A stretch of DNA of 24,000 nucleotides. Source: Methanococci archaeon. GTDB taxonomy: Archaea > AGJL01 > Methanococci > Methanococcales > Methanocaldococcaceae. The stretch lies in assembly GCA_013153845.1 (NCBI GenBank), contig JAADDS010000013.1, positions 1 through 24,000 of the forward strand, given 5' to 3'. Shown in pieces: positions 1,457-10,609 of the stretch (the stretch's first letter is position 1; the number at the start of each line of letters is the position of its first letter). The notes beneath the pieces are model-generated. The model saw only the letters and a list, made by a program, of their open reading frames with translations. It did not search any database and had not been told where the DNA came from. Both the position numbers and the translations under genes were made by a program.

Positions 1457-1632
1457 TTAAACAATATATTTGTATGTTTTTTACTCTTAATCTATTCATA
1501 TATATTTTTGAATATACAAGCATAACTATTTAGCATCTTGATTTAGCATATTATTATGAATATTATACAGTATATACTATTATATGTTTATACTTAACTT
1601 TATATATTCGCACGCAAATTATATATACTTTA

Positions 1633-1648
1633 TACACAAATTTGTGTA
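1633..1648. promoter_or_regulatory. Perfect 16-bp palindrome TACACAAATTTGTGTA, candidate operator for the adjacent RHH protein
   Basis: Self-complementary by inspection. It lies between a TATA-like CTTTATAC (1628-1635) and the GGTG ribosome-binding site (1663-1666) of the RHH gene. Confidence 0.5.
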
Positions 1649-1672
1649 ATATATAAGTTATAGGTGTTATTC

Positions 1673-1885
1673 ATGAGAACAAATAAAGGAGAAGTAAAAC
1701 GAATACAGGTAACATTTACAAAAGAACAGTGGGAACTGATAGAGAAACTAAAAGGAGAATTGGGATTATCTGACTCTGAAGTCGTTAGAAATATTGTGTT
1801 AAATTGGTTAATTGAAAAATCGTTTATTTCAACGGCTTTAAAAAACAGATTATTTAGAGGAGATGATAATGGCAAAAAACATTAG
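1673..1885 (+). CDS. Ribbon-helix-helix (CopG/Arc-like) DNA-binding protein, putative controller of the cassette
   Basis: N-terminal beta-strand KRIQVTFT followed by two helices (KEQWELIEKLKGE, SDSEVVRNIVLNWL). GGTG sits 6 nt upstream of the ATG at 1673. The 3' end overlaps the methyltransferase start by 23 nt. Confidence 0.65.
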   Translation: MRTNKGEVKRIQVTFTKEQWELIEKLKGELGLSDSEVVRNIVLNWLIEKSFISTALKNRLFRGDDNGKKH

Positions 1886-3980
1886 AGAATATAAATATAT
1901 AGAAAAGAAATTTCCTATTGCAGAAATAAATAGAATATGTGTTTCTGAGAGAATTGCGTTAAAGCCAATATATATGATGCACAGGATATTTGCAAGAAGA
2001 ATCGGCTCCGTTTTCAGGACAATCATATTAGGGGCTTTAAAAGATGATTCTGTGAATATAATGGAAGAATTTTACAAATCACATAGAACTGACCCTGATA
2101 CAAATGATATAACAATATTAGACCCAATGTGTGGCGGTGGAACTACTCTTATTGAAGGATCACGATTAGGAGCCAAAGTTATTGGCTTTGAAATAAATCC
2201 AATACCTTGGTTTATTACAAAGTGTGAAATGAGTATTGTAGATGTAGATAAATTGATAGAAACATACAAAAACCTTGAAATCACTATTGGAAGGAAGATA
2301 AAGGAAATGTATAAAACAAAATGCCCACATTGTGGAGAAGAGGGGGAAATAATATACGTTTTTTGGATAAAAAAGGTTAAATGTCCAAATTGTAATAAAG
2401 AGATTCAGTTATTTAAGGACTATATTATAACTTATGACAAAAAAGAAGAAAACTTTTATCTTGTATGTCCTAATTGTTTAGATGTTTTTCATACAACTTC
2501 TTTGAAAGAAGAAACCACTTGCCCCACCTGTGGAAATGTGTTTAATCCAAAAAATGGAGTGGTTGTTAAAAATAACATAACCTGCCCCTATTGTAGCCAT
2601 AAATTCCGACTAATTGATGTATTAAAACAACAAGATGAGCCATTAGATGCGATTCCTTATGCTATTGATGGATTTTGCCACAATTGTGAAAGAAGGTTCA
2701 TTAAAAAATTTGATGAAAATGATTGGAAAATTCTCAAAAAAGTTGAAGAGGTCTTTGAAGAGAATAAATCAAAGTTGTTATTTCCAAGAGATGAAATTCC
2801 AGATGGCTATAATACAAATCAGATGAAAAAGCATAATTATAAATATTGGTATCAGATGTTCAACAAAAGACAACTACTTGCTTTATCACTACTTTTAGAA
2901 GAAATTAAAAAAATTGAACCAAAAGAGGTAAGAGATATATTCCTATTAACATTTTCAGAGACGTTGAGGGCAAATAACATGTTCTGCTATTACGATAAGA
3001 GATGGGCTAAACAGATCACTCCCTTATTTTCAAGAAAGGACTTTGCACCGGTTAATTTTCCTTTAGAGCAGAATGTCTGGGGAGGGAAATATGGCAGAGG
3101 ATCATTTAGACAAGTTTTTGAAAGAGTTCTAAAGGGAAAAGAATTTAATTTAAAACCTTATGAGCGACTATACACCAAAAAAGGCACAAAACGAATATAT
3201 TTGGATGAAAAAATCGGGGAAAAGGAATGGGCTGTGTATTGTATGGATGCCCAAAATTTAGATAAAATCGTAAAAGATAAGGTTGATTTAGTAATCACTG
3301 ATCCCCCATACTTTGATAGCATAAATTACTCTGAGGTATATGAATTCTTCTATGTGTGGTTGAAATTGGCTTTGGATTATGAATGCTTTAAAAATTCATC
3401 GGCAATAAATCAAAATGAAGCAATTGTAAATGAAATTCAAAATAAAGATAAAGAGCATTTCAAAAAAATATTAACCAACATATTTAGAAAGTCAGCAGAT
3501 GTGTTGAAAGATAATGGCATGTTTATATTTACATTCCATGATTTTAGTAAAGAGGCATGGGTTGATATGTTAGAAATTGTAAAAAATGCAGATCTATCTG
3601 TCAAAAAAATACACTTCTATCATGGAGAAAATGTTAGTGCTGGACATTTTGGAGGACAAAAAAGTGTATTTGATGGAATTTGGGTGTGTAAAAAAGAGGA
3701 AATGGAAAAGGTGTCAATATCCGTTGAAGAAAGTATAGATCTTGTTTGGAAGGAAATTAATCACCTAATAGATGAGATAAAAAAGGGTAAATACTTTAAG
3801 TTAGATGAAAATGATATAAAAATATTTGTGTATGGAAAATGTGTTGAGATTTATGAAAAATACAATTTAGGTATTTCCCTTAATGAATTTATTGATATTG
3901 CATTAAATAAAAAAGCAATTGAAAATGCATTAAATAATGTTAAAAAACCAAAGAAAGTTCTTATTACCGATTTTATTTAA
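1863..3980 (+). CDS. DNA methyltransferase (N6-adenine or N4-cytosine class), DUF1156/COG1743-like with Zn-ribbon inserts
   Basis: SAM motif I DPMCGGGTT (nt 2118-2147) followed by GFEINP. Catalytic motif IV DPPY (nt 3300-3311). N-terminal FPI..IN....ER...HRIFARR resembles DUF1156. Three CxxC...CxxC pairs span nt 2322-2687. The start may instead be the ATG at 1869, which is better spaced from GAGGAG. Confidence 0.85.
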   Translation: MIMAKNIREYKYIEKKFPIAEINRICVSERIALKPIYMMHRIFARRIGSVFRTIILGALKDDSVNIMEEFYKSHRTDPDTNDITILDPMCGGGTTLIEGSRLGAKVIGFEINPIPWFITKCEMSIVDVDKLIETYKNLEITIGRKIKEMYKTKCPHCGEEGEIIYVFWIKKVKCPNCNKEIQLFKDYIITYDKKEENFYLVCPNCLDVFHTTSLKEETTCPTCGNVFNPKNGVVVKNNITCPYCSHKFRLIDVLKQQDEPLDAIPYAIDGFCHNCERRFIKKFDENDWKILKKVEEVFEENKSKLLFPRDEIPDGYNTNQMKKHNYKYWYQMFNKRQLLALSLLLEEIKKIEPKEVRDIFLLTFSETLRANNMFCYYDKRWAKQITPLFSRKDFAPVNFPLEQNVWGGKYGRGSFRQVFERVLKGKEFNLKPYERLYTKKGTKRIYLDEKIGEKEWAVYCMDAQNLDKIVKDKVDLVITDPPYFDSINYSEVYEFFYVWLKLALDYECFKNSSAINQNEAIVNEIQNKDKEHFKKILTNIFRKSADVLKDNGMFIFTFHDFSKEAWVDMLEIVKNADLSVKKIHFYHGENVSAGHFGGQKSVFDGIWVCKKEEMEKVSISVEESIDLVWKEINHLIDEIKKGKYFKLDENDIKIFVYGKCVEIYEKYNLGISLNEFIDIALNKKAIENALNNVKKPKKVLITDFI

Positions 3981-5023
3981 AAAATATTTTTATTATCTAT
4001 TGTATATTGAAGACCTTTATTTTTTGATGTTATTGCGAGAGATATTGGCTTTTGTTTTATTGCTTCATCATAATATTTTTTCCTGGTTTCATTAATTTTT
4101 TTATCAAAGATAACTACTTCAAGTTTATCTTTTAAAACATTCCACTTATTAACATTAAAATTCCAATTATATCTGTTTGCAAGATGTTCTAAATAATTAG
4201 AAAGTTCATTGCCCACAGTTTTATCTAAATAATACTCATTTCCATATTTTTTAATATCCACCAACTCGCCTTTTTTATTCGATAACGTTATCTTACCTTT
4301 TCTATCCTTGTTTTGTGTAGTCCATAGTTTGTTTAACTCATCTAAAAAATCTTTTATTAGTTCTGTTAAGTCCTTTATAGATGTAGGATAATTTAATAGT
4401 ATTTCAAGTGGATGGTTTGAATCGTTATTTGTTAGATATTTCAACCAATCGAGACAATTTTCAGGATAATTAAATAAGTTTTTGAAAACACCGTCAATAA
4501 ATATTGAAGGGATTAATGCATCTTTTGGGCTAAAATTAAAAAATTTTTTGTTTGAATATAAAGAATAAACAAGAGATACAAGTAAATGGAACGTCCCAAA
4601 TGGATATTTTCTTTTAAATTTTTCAGGTTTGTTTGCACACATGCCTCTCCAATTATTTGGATTTATCATTTCATTTTGGATTGAGGTTATTAATTCTGGC
4701 GGATTATTCGAATCCCACAATAATATATGATGACCAATTGATTTTATTCCCTCTCTTAAAATTTCTACATCAATGAAGGCATATTTTTCTTTATTATTTT
4801 TGAAATCAATTGATTCCAAAGTAGTAAGAACTTTGCCATCATAAAATCCAACAACTTCCCATCCATAAACCTCATTTAAAAATAATGCGGAAATAAATCC
4901 ATCGGTATCTGGACTTATAATAATTCCTTTTATTTCATCTTTTTTATTATATAACCAAGAATAGCAATTACCTTTTTTGATATTTTCTACAACTTCTTTT
5001 ATTGAGTTGTAATTATGTAGCAT
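3977..5023 (-). CDS. Hypothetical 348-aa protein, candidate nuclease or effector partner of the methyltransferase
   Basis: Long ORF with an AGGTGG ribosome-binding site 7 nt upstream of the ATG. It is convergent with the methyltransferase, and the two stop codons overlap in TTAA (3977-3980). The N-terminus has DHH-like motifs (SPDTDGFISALFL, FIDVE, GHH). I recognise no family with confidence. Confidence 0.6.
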   Translation of the reverse strand: MLHNYNSIKEVVENIKKGNCYSWLYNKKDEIKGIIISPDTDGFISALFLNEVYGWEVVGFYDGKVLTTLESIDFKNNKEKYAFIDVEILREGIKSIGHHILLWDSNNPPELITSIQNEMINPNNWRGMCANKPEKFKRKYPFGTFHLLVSLVYSLYSNKKFFNFSPKDALIPSIFIDGVFKNLFNYPENCLDWLKYLTNNDSNHPLEILLNYPTSIKDLTELIKDFLDELNKLWTTQNKDRKGKITLSNKKGELVDIKKYGNEYYLDKTVGNELSNYLEHLANRYNWNFNVNKWNVLKDKLEVVIFDKKINETRKKYYDEAIKQKPISLAITSKNKGLQYTIDNKNIF

Positions 5024-5049
5024 AAATCTTCCACCTATTTCTATAATTA

Positions 5050-5116
5050 TTTATCTTTCAACACACTCTTCAACAAAATACTTATAAACCTTGTATCCAT
5101 CTTCAGAAAGTTCTGG
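5050..5116. repeat. 67-bp direct repeat, right copy (att-like), forming the functional 3' end of pdxT
   Basis: Identical to 1390-1456 and contiguous with the rest of the pdxT reading frame. Confidence 0.95.
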
Positions 5117-5611
5117 ATGGAATGATAGAGCCATGTATTTTCCTTGTTTAACACCAACAATTTTATCTCCATCTCTTGCTATAATTTCAACATCATCACT
5201 CAAAATCTTATCGACCACTGGGGCTCTTATAAATACTCCGTAAATTTTTCCAAGGCCTTTAAATTCAATTTCTTTTTCAAAGCTATCTACCTGCCTTCCA
5301 TAGGCATTTCTTTTAACTGTGAAATCCATCAATTCAAGTAAGATTTGATCAATGCCCGTTCCTTTTGATAATAAAACCATTCCTGCACAAGTTCCCAATA
5401 TTGGAATATCAAGTTTTCTTATTTTTTCTATGAAATTGTATTTTTTCATTAACTTTCCGATTGTTGTGCTCTCTCCTCCCGGAATTATAAGAGCATTTAT
5501 GCCTTCTAAATCTTCTGGTCTTTTTACTCTTTTTGGAATATATCCTGCCTTTTTTAGTGTCTCTTCATGTTCTTCTATATCTCCCTGGATAGATAAAACC
5601 CCAACAATCAT
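5051..5611 (-). CDS. pdxT: Pyridoxal 5'-phosphate synthase glutaminase subunit PdxT
   Basis: [16 protein letters not shown]-terminus, catalytic Cys in GTCAGM, and C-terminal FHPE triad motif. The 186-aa length is typical of the SNO/PdxT family. Confidence 0.9.
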
Positions 5612-5664
5612 TTTAATCCCTCATACATGCTTTTTTTATATTTTTATTTAATTTTTAATTTAAT

Positions 5665-6513
5665 TTAGATTATTTTAGCCCCGCAATTATTGGGTTTTGT
5701 TTTTATTACCTTTCCATATTTATTTAAGGTAGACATCACTTTTTCCACGTGATCATCTTCCACAATAGCAATGTAAGAAGGTCCGGTTCCAGATAAACCA
5801 GCAGTTAAAGCTCCCGATTTTAGTGCATCTATTGCAATATTTGTCGGAAAGTTAAGGGCTGAGGCGTAGAGTATACCATTTAAAAATAATGCTTTAAAAT
5901 AATTTCCTTTTAATGCCTCATTGTATGCCACGTCTACAAATTTCCCAATTGCTTTCATACTTTCAACATCGAGATTTTTTTCTAATTTTGGGATTAGCAC
6001 TAAAACATTAAGATTTTCATCCATATTATCTTTTTTTATAATTTCTCTTTTTATATTGTCGGTTATAGTTATTCCACCAAAATATGAGGCAGTAGCATCA
6101 TCGTAAGCTCCCGTAATGGTTAATCCTTCATCAAAACTTGATTTTATTCCAAGTTCTATTATTAACTCATCATCTATCTTTTCATTTAAAGCATCAAAGG
6201 TTGCTAAAACCACTGCGTTGGATGTCGCTGAACTACTACTTAATCCTGATCTTATGGGAATTTCTGTTTTTGTTTCAACATAAGCAGAATAATCTAAATT
6301 AAAATATTCAAGTGTATTCTTAACACATCGGATTATAAGATTCGGTTTTATGTTGGGATTATCTAACACTTTTCCCTCTATTTTTCCTTTTCCATCGTCT
6401 ATAAGCTTTACTTTTGCATAAACTTTCAAATCCAGACCAAAAGCAGATCCTTTTCCCATAGCTATCGCGTTTATTATAGTTCCAGATGCCAAAGCATATG
6501 CACTACCCTCCAT
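5665..6513 (-). CDS. aroK: Archaeal shikimate kinase (GHMP-kinase family)
   Basis: MEGSAYALASGTIINAIAMGKG start and the GHMP motif SGLSSSSA. ATG at 6513 is preferred to GTG at 6522 by comparison with my recollection of the Methanocaldococcus enzyme's N-terminus. Confidence 0.8.
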   Translation of the reverse strand: MEGSAYALASGTIINAIAMGKGSAFGLDLKVYAKVKLIDDGKGKIEGKVLDNPNIKPNLIIRCVKNTLEYFNLDYSAYVETKTEIPIRSGLSSSSATSNAVVLATFDALNEKIDDELIIELGIKSSFDEGLTITGAYDDATASYFGGITITDNIKREIIKKDNMDENLNVLVLIPKLEKNLDVESMKAIGKFVDVAYNEALKGNYFKALFLNGILYASALNFPTNIAIDALKSGALTAGLSGTGPSYIAIVEDDHVEKVMSTLNKYGKVIKTKPNNCGAKII

Positions 6514-6571
6514 ATAAATCACACTTTTATTTTTTAGTGTCTTGGATTTTTCTTATTCCCTATTTACTTGT

Positions 6572-7150
6572 TTAGTTGTTAGTCCAATTCCATAATCCTA
6601 CTCTATTCTCTTTTGCCTTTCTTTCAATATTTAAAAACTCATGTTCCAATTCAAACCTACTAACATAAACTCTTGCATATCCATACTTTAATAACTCTTC
6701 ATTAAAGTTTTCTAACTTTCCGCTATCGTTTATATAGATATACGCTAAATACCTTCCATATTTGTCTTTTTTTGGAGCTTCGTCATCAAAAACTATTATT
6801 ACTTCCTTATGATCTAACTCTCTCTTTGCAAAGTTTTTGGCTTTTTCTCCCCAATATTTTAGATAATTTATATCGGTTATTGGCGTTCCGTTTAGCAGAT
6901 AATACTCATCAGGATTGTTTTTCTTGTATGTCTCAGGGGTATCAACTCCCAGCAACCTAATCTTCCATAAATGACCATTAACTTCCACATAAATAGTATC
7001 CCCATCTACAACTTTAACAACCTTTCCATAGTAGTGTTCATGAGTATCAATAAATGGAGAAGAAACCATGTTGTTGTGTTGCTCAAAACATCCGCAAAAT
7101 AGCAAGTTAATTGAAATTATTAAAATTATGGGAATTATTTTTATCTTCAT
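6572..7150 (-). CDS. Secreted or membrane-anchored thermonuclease (staphylococcal nuclease-like)
   Basis: N-terminal hydrophobic signal ending in CGC. SNase signature VVKVVDGDTIYV...IRLLGVDTPE. Confidence 0.8.
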   Translation of the reverse strand: MKIKIIPIILIISINLLFCGCFEQHNNMVSSPFIDTHEHYYGKVVKVVDGDTIYVEVNGHLWKIRLLGVDTPETYKKNNPDEYYLLNGTPITDINYLKYWGEKAKNFAKRELDHKEVIIVFDDEAPKKDKYGRYLAYIYINDSGKLENFNEELLKYGYARVYVSRFELEHEFLNIERKAKENRVGLWNWTNN

Positions 7151-7228
7151 ACTTATCCCTTCTAATTCCGAATTTTTAATTTTTTAAATTTTTATCAATT
7201 TTTGTCTATTTATTATTTAACTTCTATT

Positions 7229-7948
7229 TTAACTTTTAGATATTTTTAATGCATCTTTTAAATTAATCATTCCCTTATAAAGTGCAGATCCAATAATAAC
7301 GCCCTCAACTCCGATCTCTTTGAGTTTTTTTATATCTTCGAGTGTTGTTATTCCACCAGAATAAATTATTGGAACTCCTACATTCTTTACTAATGCTTCA
7401 ATTATATCTGTTTTAATTCCACTCAACATTCCCTCAACGTCAACATTCGTAAATAAAATCCCTCCAACGTTTTTTTCATATTTTTTTGCAATCTCTATGG
7501 GATTTTTATTGATCGTCTCTTTCCATCCTTTTATAACAACTTTCCCCTGTTTACACTCAACAGCTAAAATTATTTTTTCTCTTTCAATTTCAGAAAGTAA
7601 TTCATTTAAAAAGGTCGGATCGGTTATTGCCTTAGTTCCTACTACGATTTTATCTACACCAATATCCATTAACCTCTTAGCAATTGTTAAACTTCTAATT
7701 CCTCCTCCAACTTCAACAGGAATATTAACCTCTTCAACGATCTTTTCAATAACATCAATATTACTTCCGCAACCTAATGCAGCATCAAGATCAACAATAT
7801 GTAAGTATTCTGCTCCATCATATTCCCATTTTTTAGCAACTCTTACAGGATCTTCGAGTTCTAAGTGTTTTTTAGTTGGATCTCCTTGAATTAATTGCAC
7901 ACATTTTTTATCTTTTAGATCAACAGCGGGAATTACGATCACACTCAA
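7229..7948 (-). CDS. hisA: ProFAR isomerase HisA (histidine biosynthesis)
   Basis: IPAVDLKDKKCVQLIQGD N-terminus, internal GGGIRS and C-terminal SGGI phosphate-binding motifs of the HisA (beta/alpha)8 barrel. Confidence 0.85.
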   Translation of the reverse strand: MSVIVIPAVDLKDKKCVQLIQGDPTKKHLELEDPVRVAKKWEYDGAEYLHIVDLDAALGCGSNIDVIEKIVEEVNIPVEVGGGIRSLTIAKRLMDIGVDKIVVGTKAITDPTFLNELLSEIEREKIILAVECKQGKVVIKGWKETINKNPIEIAKKYEKNVGGILFTNVDVEGMLSGIKTDIIEALVKNVGVPIIYSGGITTLEDIKKLKEIGVEGVIIGSALYKGMINLKDALKISKS

Positions 7949-8272
7949 TCACCTATTTAGATACTTTTTATATTTTTTTAAGTTATAACATCCATATCTT
8001 TAACTTTTATAATAAGTTTTATAAACAGTTTAATAATTAAGTAGTCATAATTTAGATTTTATAAAGATTTGTATGCCTAAGTATTTTGACAGTTAGGTTA
8101 TAACAACTTTGTATAAAAATTATTTAGTAAAAGATTATTAGAATGTTATAAAAATTATCCATAGTTGTCGCTTAGGAGAGTAATCTTACAAACAATTCGA
8201 TTAAATTACACAAACTTAAATATTTTAAGAAAAATAAAGATAAAAATAGAAGAAAAATAAAGAGGAGATCTT

Positions 8273-8839
8273 ATGTTCATTGTGTTTGAGGGCATAGATG
8301 GGAGTGGAAAGACCACAATCTCAAAAAAACTGGCTAAAAGTATAAACGCATTTTGGACTTATGAGCCATCAAATAGTGTTGTAGGGGACTTAATTAGGAA
8401 AATACTTTCTGGAAATGTCAAAGTTGATGATAAAACCTTGGCATTATTATTTTCAGCGGATAGGGTAGAGCATAGCAAGAAGATTAAAGAAGAGCTTAAA
8501 CATAGGAGTGTGGTGTGTGATAGATACCTCTACTCTTCAATTGCTTATCAAAGTGTTGCAGGTGTTGATGAGGACTTTATAAGGTCAATAAACAGATATG
8601 CATTGAAGCCAGATCTTGTTTTTTTGCTAATTTGTGATGTTGAAACTGCACTAAAACGAATAAACACAGAAGATATTTTTGAAAAAAAAGAATTTTTAGA
8701 AAAAGTGCAAGAGAAATACTTAGATCTTGCAAAAAAAGAAGGTTTTGTGATCATAGACACAACAGACAGAAGTGTTGAGGATGTTTATGATGAAGTTTTT
8801 AGCATACTAAAACCAATGATCACTCAACATAGTTTTTAA
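8273..8839 (+). CDS. tmk: Thymidylate kinase
   Basis: P-loop FEGIDGSGKTT and DRY motif (CDRYLYSS). AGAGGAG ribosome-binding site upstream. Confidence 0.85.
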   Translation: MFIVFEGIDGSGKTTISKKLAKSINAFWTYEPSNSVVGDLIRKILSGNVKVDDKTLALLFSADRVEHSKKIKEELKHRSVVCDRYLYSSIAYQSVAGVDEDFIRSINRYALKPDLVFLLICDVETALKRINTEDIFEKKEFLEKVQEKYLDLAKKEGFVIIDTTDRSVEDVYDEVFSILKPMITQHSF

Positions 8840-8910
8840 ATAGGGAATAACAAAATATATAAACAATTAATATTTAGAGTGGTATGTTAAAATTGTTAAA
8901 GGTGGGGATT

Positions 8911-9495
8911 ATGAAAGTTGCATGTGATATTCCTGTTTCGGAAGTTATGAGCTTTCCAGTCATTACCGCAAAAAAGAATATGAGTGTTTATGATATTGCA
9001 AACATAATGACAGAACATAATATAGGAGCAGTGGTGATCGTTGAAGATAACAAACCCGTAGGAATTTTAACTGAGAGAGATATTGTTAAAAGAGTCGTTT
9101 CAAAAAATTTAAAGCCAAAAGAAGTTTTAGCGGAAGAGGTTATGAGTAAAAAGATAATAACTATTCATCAAAATGCATCAATAACAGAAGCTGCTAAAAT
9201 TATGGCAAGATGCGGAGTAAAGAGATTACCCGTAGTTAAGGATGGGAATTTAATGGGAATAATTACTCAAAGCGATATAATCAAAATATCTCCAAATCTA
9301 TTGGAAATCGTTATGGAATATGCATCAATAACCCCTGAAGATGTAGAAGGGTTTTCATTAGATACTGATGAATTTAGCGAAGAATACATTAATGGAATAT
9401 GTGAAAACTGCGGTTATCAGGGCAGAGTAAGATTATACCATGGAAGATACTTATGTGATGAATGTATAGAAGAATTCGAAGAAAAAGAAGAGTAA
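8911..9495 (+). CDS. CBS-domain pair protein with C-terminal zinc ribbon
   Basis: Two CBS repeats (GAVVIVEDNKPVGILTERDI and RLPVVKDGNLMGIITQSDI). C-terminal CENCG...CDEC. GGTGGGG ribosome-binding site before the ATG at 8911. Confidence 0.75.
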   Translation: MKVACDIPVSEVMSFPVITAKKNMSVYDIANIMTEHNIGAVVIVEDNKPVGILTERDIVKRVVSKNLKPKEVLAEEVMSKKIITIHQNASITEAAKIMARCGVKRLPVVKDGNLMGIITQSDIIKISPNLLEIVMEYASITPEDVEGFSLDTDEFSEEYINGICENCGYQGRVRLYHGRYLCDECIEEFEEKEE

Positions 9496-9556
9496 ATTAA
9501 ATAAAAGATAAAATTACAAAAAATTACAATAATAAAAGTAAATTAAAATTAAAAAA

Positions 9557-10465
9557 TCATCTATGGGCTAAACCAACTATCTCTTTTAGAGTAAGGCCCT
9601 CCTCTTTTAGAAACGAACATATCTCATCACAGATCTTTTTGAACACATCATATCCTCTATAATAAACTCCACTTCCAACTTGAACAGCTGAAGCACCCGC
9701 CATCATATATTCAATAGCATCCTCTCCACTCATTATTCCTCCAACACCAATAATAGGCACATCAAAGTTCTCATACAGATCCCAAACTGCCTTTACACCG
9801 ATAGGTTTTATCGCTTTTCCACTTAATCCTCCAAATTTGTTAGATAATATAGGTTTTTTCGCTTTAATATCTATAACCATTCCTCTAACAGTATTAATTG
9901 CCACAAGACCATCAACTCCCGCCTCTACAACCGCCCCAGCTATTTCTACAATATCACTAACATTTGGAGTTAATTTAGCAAAAACAGGGATTTTAACAAC
10001 ATCCTTAACCGCAGCACATACGTTATATGACATCTCTGGATTTTGCCCTATTGTTGCTCCATAACCCTTCGCATGAGGACAGGAAATATTTAACTCAATG
10101 GCATCAACAAAACTTTCAATTTTCTTAGCGACATCTATAAATTCATCCTCATCCTTTCCATATATCGAGCCAATAACCCTAACACCCATTTTTTCAAGGT
10201 CTTTTTTAACAGATTTTATTTCCTCTATGTATTCATCAACCCCAGGGTTTGGTAAACCCATCGCATTTAAAAATCCTCCATAAACTTCTACAATCGTGGG
10301 ATTTTTATGTCCAGAGTTTGGATATAATCCAACTGATTTCGTAACAACTGCCCCGGATCCTCCCTTTGCAATTCTTTTTAACGCACTACCTGTTTCTCCC
10401 ATTATTCCACTTGCTAAAAATACCGGATTTTTGAATTTAATACCACAAATTTCAGTTTCTAACAT
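9557..10465 (-). CDS. pyrD: Dihydroorotate dehydrogenase, class 1B catalytic subunit
   Basis: FKNPVFLASG N-terminus, catalytic-loop NISCPH, and C-terminal GVGGI FMN-binding motif. Confidence 0.85.
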   Translation of the reverse strand: MLETEICGIKFKNPVFLASGIMGETGSALKRIAKGGSGAVVTKSVGLYPNSGHKNPTIVEVYGGFLNAMGLPNPGVDEYIEEIKSVKKDLEKMGVRVIGSIYGKDEDEFIDVAKKIESFVDAIELNISCPHAKGYGATIGQNPEMSYNVCAAVKDVVKIPVFAKLTPNVSDIVEIAGAVVEAGVDGLVAINTVRGMVIDIKAKKPILSNKFGGLSGKAIKPIGVKAVWDLYENFDVPIIGVGGIMSGEDAIEYMMAGASAVQVGSGVYYRGYDVFKKICDEICSFLKEEGLTLKEIVGLAHR

Positions 10466-10609
10466 AATCGTTTCACCATTCTCTTTCTTTAAAACTATAA
10501 ACCACTATACAACTATTCTTACGTTTTTTTATGTTTTTAATTTTATTTTTTGATATTGTTTAAAATGCATTATTTAATATAAATCAGTTTTTACTTTTTA
10601 TTTTTACTT

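Follow-up and report, generated by a model that had tools for sequence, protein, structure and literature searches.

A probable mobile type II restriction-modification unit in a Methanococci archaeon, with a candidate restriction endonuclease from a widespread unannotated family

The stretch of DNA considered here (the window) comprises positions 1 to 24,000 of the forward strand of contig JAADDS010000013.1, from a Methanococci archaeon (assembly GCA_013153845.1). Probably, positions 1457-5049 of the window hold a mobile three-gene type II restriction-modification (R-M) unit in which a 348-residue protein serves as the restriction enzyme (R). The other two genes encode a putative ribbon-helix-helix (RHH) regulator and a predicted DNA methyltransferase (M). 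The unit is atypical in three respects, namely the family of its R protein, a cut-down DUF1156/Hma-type M and a putative RHH autorepressor acting on M. Its components are as follows.

1457-5049 (3,593 bp), no strand: inserted R-M unit of RHH, M and R genes, without integrase or transposase
1673-1885, plus strand: RHH regulator gene, 70 residues; reading frame open from GTG 1664
1863-3980, plus strand: DNA methyltransferase (M) gene, 705 residues, probably 703 residues from ATG 1869
3977-5023, minus strand: candidate restriction endonuclease (R) gene, 348 residues, convergent to M
3977-3980, no strand: TTAA common to the convergent stop codons of M and R

The case for R begins with the size of its family. 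Searched as a single sequence and as profiles from two alignments (A1 and A4), the 348-residue protein was unmatched in Pfam, NCBIfam, PADLOC, PHROGs and PDB sequences, and every named member of the family, Metvu_1018 included, is annotated as a hypothetical protein. A preliminary description of the locus had called it an orphan protein, a label that no longer applies: a word-indexed search returned 124 clusters, an exhaustive profile search at least 667 representatives at 50% identity (E<=1e-3), and a scan of one genome per species 151 loci. These are spread over Patescibacteria (the candidate phyla radiation, CPR), DPANN archaea, Bacteroidota, Elusimicrobiota, Planctomycetota and others. The R protein of the window falls into one 90% cluster with Metvu_1018, which comes from the isolate Methanocaldococcus vulcanius M7 (hereafter M7). 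A tblastn search with the family gave zero matches in the GenBank phage and PLSDB plasmid collections, and in IMG/VR only two contigs carry it, both with the same R-M layout. A literature search on Metvu_1018/1019 found nothing relevant.

Genes were called in 80 fetched loci (designated L with a number), and the gene abutting each 348-residue homologue was taken as its partner. The preliminary description had reasoned that homologues found mostly without an adjacent methyltransferase would speak against its proposal of an R-M system; instead, 76 of the 79 abutting genes match PF01555 (N6_N4_Mtase). The abutting gene is convergent in most loci, with a gap of -9 to +14 nt, and lies upstream and co-directional in eight. 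Partner methylases fall into several architectures: plain enzymes of ~270-330 residues, forms of ~360 and ~410 residues, a LexA-S24-PF01555 fusion of ~483-505 residues (25-27 loci), and the 705-residue Zn-ribbon type, which is confined to the clade of the window. Sixty-nine partners carry SPPY, with the beta-class motif order IV->I in 64 (forms with and without a LexA-S24 fusion) and an unreadable order in the other five, and five (the window and L002-L005) carry DPPY with the order I->IV. Because these architectures are unrelated, a conserved R seems to have been paired with swapped M genes. In the clade of the window, a shortened DUF1156/Hma-type M has displaced the SPPY beta-class partner that is usual for the R family.

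Two further arrangements bear on the function of R. Of 72 loci whose sequence extends far enough upstream, 22 have an HTH_3 protein of ~73 residues (helix-turn-helix, HTH; Pfam 3e-14 for a representative) that ends within a few nucleotides of where R begins, which is the arrangement of a classic operon of controller (C) protein and R. In addition, the 623-residue protein P0184, encoded on a 33-kb contig, is a single-chain fusion of a PF01555 domain (20-255) with a domain of the 348-residue family (308-615), and it reads as a type IIC-like derivative of that family. Since the conserved protein is tied to interchangeable methylases, to C-protein control and occasionally to M by fusion, it is supported as a candidate restriction endonuclease of a widespread family lacking annotation in Pfam, NCBIfam and PADLOC. 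The suspicion of an R-M system voiced in the preliminary description is thus borne out by the methylase pairing, the C-proteins, the P0184 fusion and the mobile-element behaviour of the unit described below. An orphan methylase beside an unrelated gene was considered and rejected on the co-occurrence statistics.

The LexA-S24 fusion would couple autoregulation of the methylase to RecA-stimulated self-cleavage. Its domains were checked in detail in one representative:

L006, 10921-12375, minus strand: fusion methylase with a complete LexA DNA-binding domain (3-63), an S24 autopeptidase (76-191) and PF01555 (239-469)

About 24 other loci have this fusion, among them L007, L010, L012, L014-L020, L022, L024 and L026-L028. 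No description of LexA-methylase fusions was found in the searchable literature.

Within the window, the three reading frames, their close packing and the stop codons sharing TTAA at 3977-3980 are all present as first described, the last being read directly in the sequence. The 4-nt overlap of the M and R stops also occurs in L082, L083, L088 and M7. At full length the RHH frame runs from 1664 to 1885 on the plus strand (73 residues), and a start at ATG 1673, giving 70 residues, is better served by a ribosome-binding site, GGTG at 1662-1665, which stands 7-8 nt ahead of the RHH ATG in an alignment of the window with L084 and L085. The 23-nt overlap of RHH and M given in the preliminary description (1863-1885) holds for an M start at ATG 1863; ATG 1869 is better served, by a Shine-Dalgarno-like GGAG at 1859-1862, and gives a 703-residue protein and a 17-nt overlap. 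The 70-residue and 703-residue forms are those annotated in M7. Base composition is even throughout the region (~26-32% G+C). The arrangement is not due to chance, because the same three-gene unit recurs in one isolate genome and several metagenome contigs. Close relatives of M (67-88% identity; L082-L085, L088) have a convergent R, an upstream RHH gene or both wherever the contig reaches, and the RHH homologues upstream of M in L084 and L085 match with E-values of 1e-30 to 3e-34. In L002 and L003, an open reading frame of ~50 codons precedes the methyltransferase; it has an RHH-like pattern by eye, no Pfam match and its own repeats upstream.

The 705-residue protein is, by its profile matches and motifs, a DNA methyltransferase. 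It exceeds the Pfam cutoffs for PF01555 (3.4e-7) and UPF0020 (5e-12), and it matches PHROG_10183 'DNA methyltransferase' (2e-117) and the PADLOC models PglXI (7e-30), DUF1156_MTase (5e-29) and HmaB (9e-19). Motif I (DPMCGGGTT) lies in the N-terminal part, at about residues 84-95, motif IV (DPPY) at about residue 480, and three CxxC...CxxC Zn-ribbons occupy about residues 150-280 between them, in the motif order I->IV. The type of motif IV is an established guide to the methylated base, and the DPPY form makes M probably an N6-adenine enzyme. The DUF1156/COG1743 affiliation proposed earlier stands in part. M scores 8.7e-4 (19.8 bits) against Pfam DUF1156 (PF06634), which has a 24-bit cutoff, and 5.5e-37 (127 bits, a partial match) against NCBIfam NF042963, 'anti-phage-associated DUF1156', which has a 1000-bit cutoff. 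Because it scores under both cutoffs, M is placed by sequence as a short offshoot of the DUF1156/HmaB/PglXI clade rather than as a bona fide member of DUF1156 or NF042963.

The distant relatives of M (28-41% identity, 850-1100 residues) are true DUF1156 proteins, with PF06634 over cutoff, and no R homologue was found beside them. Their operons also encode a DUF499 ATPase and an SNF2/ResIII helicase and, in some cases, a Schlafen/AlbA_2 protein, in agreement with the earlier remark that DUF1156 methyltransferases normally neighbour ATPase or helicase genes. The trio of DUF499 ATPase, N6-methyltransferase and helicase has been described as 'Hma' or DUF499-centred BREX-related systems (PMC12839542, PMC11232893). 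The unit of the window shares with these systems a homologous methyltransferase, as the PglXI, DUF1156_MTase, HmaB and partial NF042963 matches attest. Unlike them, it has neither the ATPase nor the helicase, its M is ~300-400 residues shorter, and the partner of M is a small effector standing by itself, as in type II R-M systems. No DUF499 ATPase or superfamily 2 (SF2) helicase gene was found near the module, in the window or in M7. Methyltransferases of this lineage have yet a third kind of partner: in L086 (495-3635, minus strand) and L087 (1509-4649, minus strand), an 851-residue relative of M (38% identity) lies beside, and divergent to, a 1046-residue enzyme of Eco57I/MmeI type (type IIG) with a TaqI_C specificity domain.

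The small protein at the head of the unit is accepted here as a predicted RHH regulator of the CopG/ParG kind. Its best Pfam matches, RHH_1 (E = 0.0033) and ParG (E = 0.0041), are both just under their cutoffs, and among 177,635 PDB sequences (E<=10) it matches only ParG (1p94, 0.017) and CopG (1b01/2cpg, 0.37), in both cases in register across the beta-strand and both helices. The earlier view that the controller is RHH rather than HTH agrees with this result. Two conserved elements lie upstream of its gene.

1616-1627, plus strand: conserved TATA-like box AAATTATATATA of the RHH-M operon, from the alignment of the upstream regions of the window, L084 and L085; putative promoter element
1633-1648, no strand: perfect 16-bp palindrome TACACAAATTTGTGTA, putative RHH operator, between the TATA-like box and the RHH start

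The palindrome had been noticed in the preliminary description, and its position upstream of RHH homologues is conserved. In L085 it reads TACACATATATGTGTA, in which an A->T change in the left arm is paired with a symmetric T->A change in the right arm, so that a perfect dyad is kept; in L084 it is slightly imperfect. The TATA-like box is nearly invariant across the three upstream regions. On this layout, an archaeal TATA box would be followed, ahead of the transcription start, by an operator, and the RHH transcript would begin with a short leader.

In several ways, the unit resembles the type IIP R-M systems controlled by C-proteins, such as PvuII, BamHI, AhdI and Esp1396I. Like them, it has separate M and R genes and a small, presumably dimeric DNA-binding regulator, with a palindromic, putative operator ahead of the regulator's own gene, and it behaves as a selfish, mobile unit; an HTH_3 C-protein directly upstream of R is found in the related loci counted above, not in the window. 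It differs in that its regulator is RHH rather than Xre/HTH_3, that this regulator precedes and overlaps M rather than R, which is convergent, that R belongs to no described restriction-enzyme family, and that M is a Zn-ribbon DPPY enzyme rather than a beta-class one. The RHH gene goes with the methyltransferase gene and not with R. Because it stands ahead of M, its product cannot be a classic activator of R. The small protein is better described as a putative autorepressor of the RHH-M operon than as the equivalent of a C-protein controlling R. A closer analogy is offered by the RHH repressors CopG, ParG, omega and PaaR (PMC3874152), in which a small RHH gene comes first in the operon, a palindromic operator overlaps the promoter and strict autorepression would be expected. 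In contrast to the RHH operons of toxin-antitoxin modules, plasmids and partition systems, the RHH gene of the window stands in front of the methylase, the protective gene in an R-M unit. A review of R-M regulation mentions RHH regulators for toxin-antitoxin modules only and HTH for C-proteins (PMC3874152).

The expression of R is less readily accounted for. No RHH operator was found upstream of R in the window or in its relatives, and only 26 nt of element DNA, including an AGGTGG ribosome-binding site, precede its start. For these reasons, R is probably transcribed from outside the unit. One may speculate that it is driven by read-through from pdxT or by a TTTATAAG box at 5081-5088, inside the duplicated pdxT end.

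The unit is mobile, and filled and empty alleles coexist within one population. The features that define the insertion are the following.

1390-1456, no strand: left copy of a perfect direct repeat of 67 bp (target-site duplication), an orphan second copy of the 3' end of pdxT
5050-5116, no strand: right copy of the 67-bp repeat, comprising the last 22 pdxT codons and the stop
5051-5611, minus strand: pdxT (PF01174 at 1.2e-76)

The two copies are identical at 67 of 67 positions and lie 3660 apart. Two contigs from other samples, L137 (73.8 kb) and L138, lack the unit; they encode an identical PdxT among the same neighbouring genes, and their flanks match the window at 99.3-99.9% identity. In this empty site, pdxT is followed by 57 nt and then by a convergent gene of the metallo-beta-lactamase (MBL) fold, and by alignment (L137 6440-6700) it equals the left flank of the window, one 67-bp copy and the right flank. 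In M7 (L141), the unit occupies the same site as Metvu_1018-1020 and is bracketed by a perfect 65-bp repeat (L141 6924-6988 and 10583-10647) whose boundaries are shifted with respect to those of the window. The repeat copies are identical within each genome, although the window and M7 differ by ~6% in this stretch. Such a pattern implies that the unit was inserted there on separate occasions or that the copies have been homogenised. The insert itself is 95.6% identical between the window and M7, whereas the flanks 1-1389 and 5117-10500 are only 89.4% and 92.4% identical. The difference would fit a transfer of the unit that postdates the separation of the two lineages, or a unit under strong constraint.

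The mode of insertion has a precedent in bacteria. For R-M units of bacteria, Furuta, Abe & Kobayashi (2010, PMC2853133) defined 'insertion with long target duplication', and the window agrees with that definition on every count: an insert of less than 20 kb, a direct repeat of more than 30 bp, no other mobility gene and a related empty site. It differs from the published, bacterial cases in being an archaeal (Methanocaldococcus) example and in its repeat boundaries, which give 67 bp in the window and a shifted 65 bp in M7, each pair perfect. Perfect direct repeats of 33-53 bp also tightly bracket the R-M unit (with C, where present) in five other loci of the family:

bracketing repeats, no strand: L014 3249/6347, L032 9715/12143, L045 43/2030, L062 9698/11773, L068 9518/11884

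These repeats suggest that the 348-residue family has repeatedly spread in bacteria by insertion with long target duplication. Beside the MBL-fold gene, both L137 (7828-12561) and L141 (12264-15047) contain small unannotated open reading frames and a DUF87 (HerA/VirB4-like ATPase) gene. This region, which adjoins the MBL-fold gene in the empty-site strain and in M7 and lies just outside the left end of the window, may represent an integrated element of plasmid-like or virus-like type next to the R-M insertion site.

What kind of enzyme R might be was approached through its conserved residues and a predicted structure. The known folds of restriction enzymes are PD-(D/E)XK, HNH, GIY-YIG, phospholipase D (PLD) and half-pipe. 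In the divergent 55-sequence alignment A4, D41, D85, H99, K139, P141 and W193 are invariant, and D39, S95, G97, N123 and D177 nearly so. A compact and confident AlphaFold2 model from the family alignment (pLDDT 93.8, pTM 0.93) predicts two alpha/beta domains, one at each end of the protein, with a helical region between them. With this model, Foldseek ranks 1-13 in the PDB were all DHH/DHHA1 phosphoesterases (E 0.013-0.14, TM-scores 0.2-0.28), the neighbours including PAP phosphatase 8a8k, PggH, archaeal RecJ-Cdc45, P. furiosus RecJ, GAN, PF0399 and Cdc45. Among the viral models of BFVD, phage RecJ-like exonucleases came out on top (E 1.8e-3 and 2.9e-3), followed by NrnB, DHH phosphohydrolases and an exopolyphosphatase. 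PD-(D/E)XK, HNH, GIY-YIG and PLD proteins were absent from the top 50 in both structure libraries.

DHH/DHHA1 phosphoesterases (RecJ, GAN/RecJ-Cdc45, NrnA/NrnB, PggH) are thus the top structural neighbours in two independent libraries, and they appear to share with R a two-domain alpha/beta architecture and a collinear series of DxDG, then D, HH or [DN]xxxP, NPN and D. In alignment numbering, D39/D41, D85, H99 and D177 of R are collinear with D82/D84, D136, H160/H161 and D221 of T. thermophilus RecJ. In contrast to DHH proteins, R has G-[H/Q]-H99 as the counterpart of DHH motif III, or [D/N]103xxxP in the hhalign register, in place of the DHH triad; it lacks the GGGH motif, and none of the similarity is significant. 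Pfam PF01368 (DHH) touches two of 91 family members, weakly (E 0.047-0.072), and hidden Markov model (HMM) profile searches of the family against PDB sequences found nothing. In hhalign comparisons with a single E. coli RecJ and with a five-sequence RecJ/GAN profile, the probability stayed <2% and the motifs were out of register. A 187-sequence family profile aligned collinearly with a 125-sequence DHH profile over 189 columns (score 23.7, P = 0.023), with motif I (DxDG), motif II and the 'NPN' element in register. Control scores were 11.6 for PdxT and 15.9 for beta-class methylases, and the observed score was reached by none of 60 column shuffles and none of 60 block shuffles. Because the reversed-profile control scored 22.1, nearly as high as the observed value, this alignment is not counted as proof. 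The N-terminal 238 residues alone were modelled by AlphaFold2 at a pLDDT of 75 and led Foldseek to generic Rossmann-like proteins (phosphoribosyltransferases, PRTases).

A DHH relationship is therefore the best current guess for the fold of R rather than a finding, with about even chances of proving right. The fuller proposal, in which a diverged two-domain phosphoesterase scaffold of DHH/RecJ-like type underlies the restriction endonuclease, is offered tentatively and falls somewhat short of an even chance. On that proposal the family, which is abundant in CPR bacteria and DPANN archaea, would have escaped notice through the annotation of its members as hypothetical proteins. R would possibly then be a restriction enzyme on a fold new to such enzymes. 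To our knowledge, no report exists of a restriction enzyme with a DHH/RecJ-like catalytic fold, and we know of no DHH protein with the role of an R-M partner on duplex DNA; a literature search on DHH-fold restriction enzymes found nothing relevant.

Several results weigh against the reading of the 348-residue protein as the restriction enzyme of an R-M unit. Its nuclease activity is deduced from genomic context only, and neither by sequence nor by structure does the protein significantly match a known nuclease; in particular, Foldseek searches of the PDB with its model gave nothing at E<1e-3, the best E-value being 0.013. A recognition site could not be inferred from palindrome under-representation in ~1.1 Mb of host DNA around family members, where the avoidance signal was not specific because control loci are just as depleted in CTAG, GATC and GGCC. 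Finally, no obvious promoter or controller for R was seen within the window, which leaves unexplained how R expression would be delayed when the unit enters a new host.

The best surviving alternative retains the R-M unit as described and makes the 348-residue nuclease a highly diverged PD-(D/E)XK enzyme, which we consider unlikely. PD-(D/E)XK is the commonest fold of restriction enzymes and notoriously hard to detect by sequence, and all members in the closer half of the family have a linear P38-D39...D62-G63-K64 motif; a BamHI-like D62...D85-x-E87 reading is possible as well. However, conservation of D62 and K64 is lost in the divergent alignment A4, which keeps D39, D41, D85, H99 and D177. 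The model places DGK on a hairpin turn after a helix, unlike the canonical beta2/beta3 geometry, and the fold is missing from the top 50 structural matches of either library.

Another proposal, which has very little chance of being correct, is that the 348-residue protein acts in association with the methylase without cutting phosphodiester bonds, for example as a restriction enzyme of DNA glycosylase type like R.PabI or as a non-catalytic specificity or regulatory partner. PabI provides a precedent for non-canonical restriction chemistry, and the absence of detectable likeness to any nuclease family would suit such a protein. The invariant Asp/Asp/Asp/His/Asp constellation, however, is typical of metal-dependent phosphoesterases, C-protein control and a convergent M occur just as for toxic endonucleases, and the structural neighbours, although weak, are all phosphodiesterases or exonucleases.

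Least probable, and in our view scarcely credible, is a decaying remnant, either an orphan M with a neighbour that has lost its function or what is left of a DUF499/helicase (Hma, BREX-related) system: archaea often have solitary methyltransferases and M belongs to the DUF1156/HmaB/PglXI clade, but R is full length with all invariant residues intact, it is 96.5% identical in nucleotides to the M7 copy without a frameshift, in an insert more conserved than its flanks, and the whole unit lies inside the target duplication, so that nothing has been lost from it. An Hma/BREX-related remnant was rejected outright on the missing ATPase and helicase genes and on the bounding of the unit by the duplication.

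On the preferred reading of a mobile type II R-M unit, M would modify a specific DNA site with S-adenosylmethionine (SAM), the DPPY motif suggesting an N6-methyladenine product, and the three Zn-ribbons between motifs I and IV would probably form the target-recognition module. The 348-residue protein would be the cognate restriction endonuclease, a metal-dependent phosphodiesterase that cuts unmodified sites through D39/D41, D85, H99 and D177, with its more variable C-terminal half probably reading the sequence. The RHH protein would bind the 16-bp palindrome between the TATA-like box and its own start and thereby repress the RHH-M operon, and translation of M may be coupled to that of RHH through the 17/23-nt overlap. 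Transcription of R would presumably depend on read-through out of pdxT or start within the duplicated end of that gene. The unit has entered the 3' end of pdxT, duplicating a 67-bp target, and is gained or lost within the population. These proposals are directly testable, because the same unit is present in the cultured and fully sequenced M7.

If confirmed, the 348-residue family would add a large group of restriction enzymes (at least 667 clusters at 50% identity, in many phyla) that is invisible to Pfam, NCBIfam, PADLOC and genome annotation. As a consequence of this invisibility, R-M and defence censuses of CPR, DPANN and Bacteroidota would record too few type II systems and wrongly class the methylases of those systems as orphans. 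Should the DHH-like catalytic core also prove true, it would represent a new solution to sequence-specific DNA cleavage and could give biotechnology new specificities. The locus further indicates that a BREX/Hma-type DUF1156 methyltransferase can be trimmed and recruited into a minimal type II system, that an RHH repressor may stand in for the logic of an HTH C-protein, and that insertion with long target duplication is at work in archaea.

A 192-residue homologue of staphylococcal nuclease (SNase, PF00565) with a hydrophobic N-terminal segment is encoded at 6572-7150 on the minus strand, three genes from the unit. It stands outside the R-M unit, because it is conserved in the empty-site strain.

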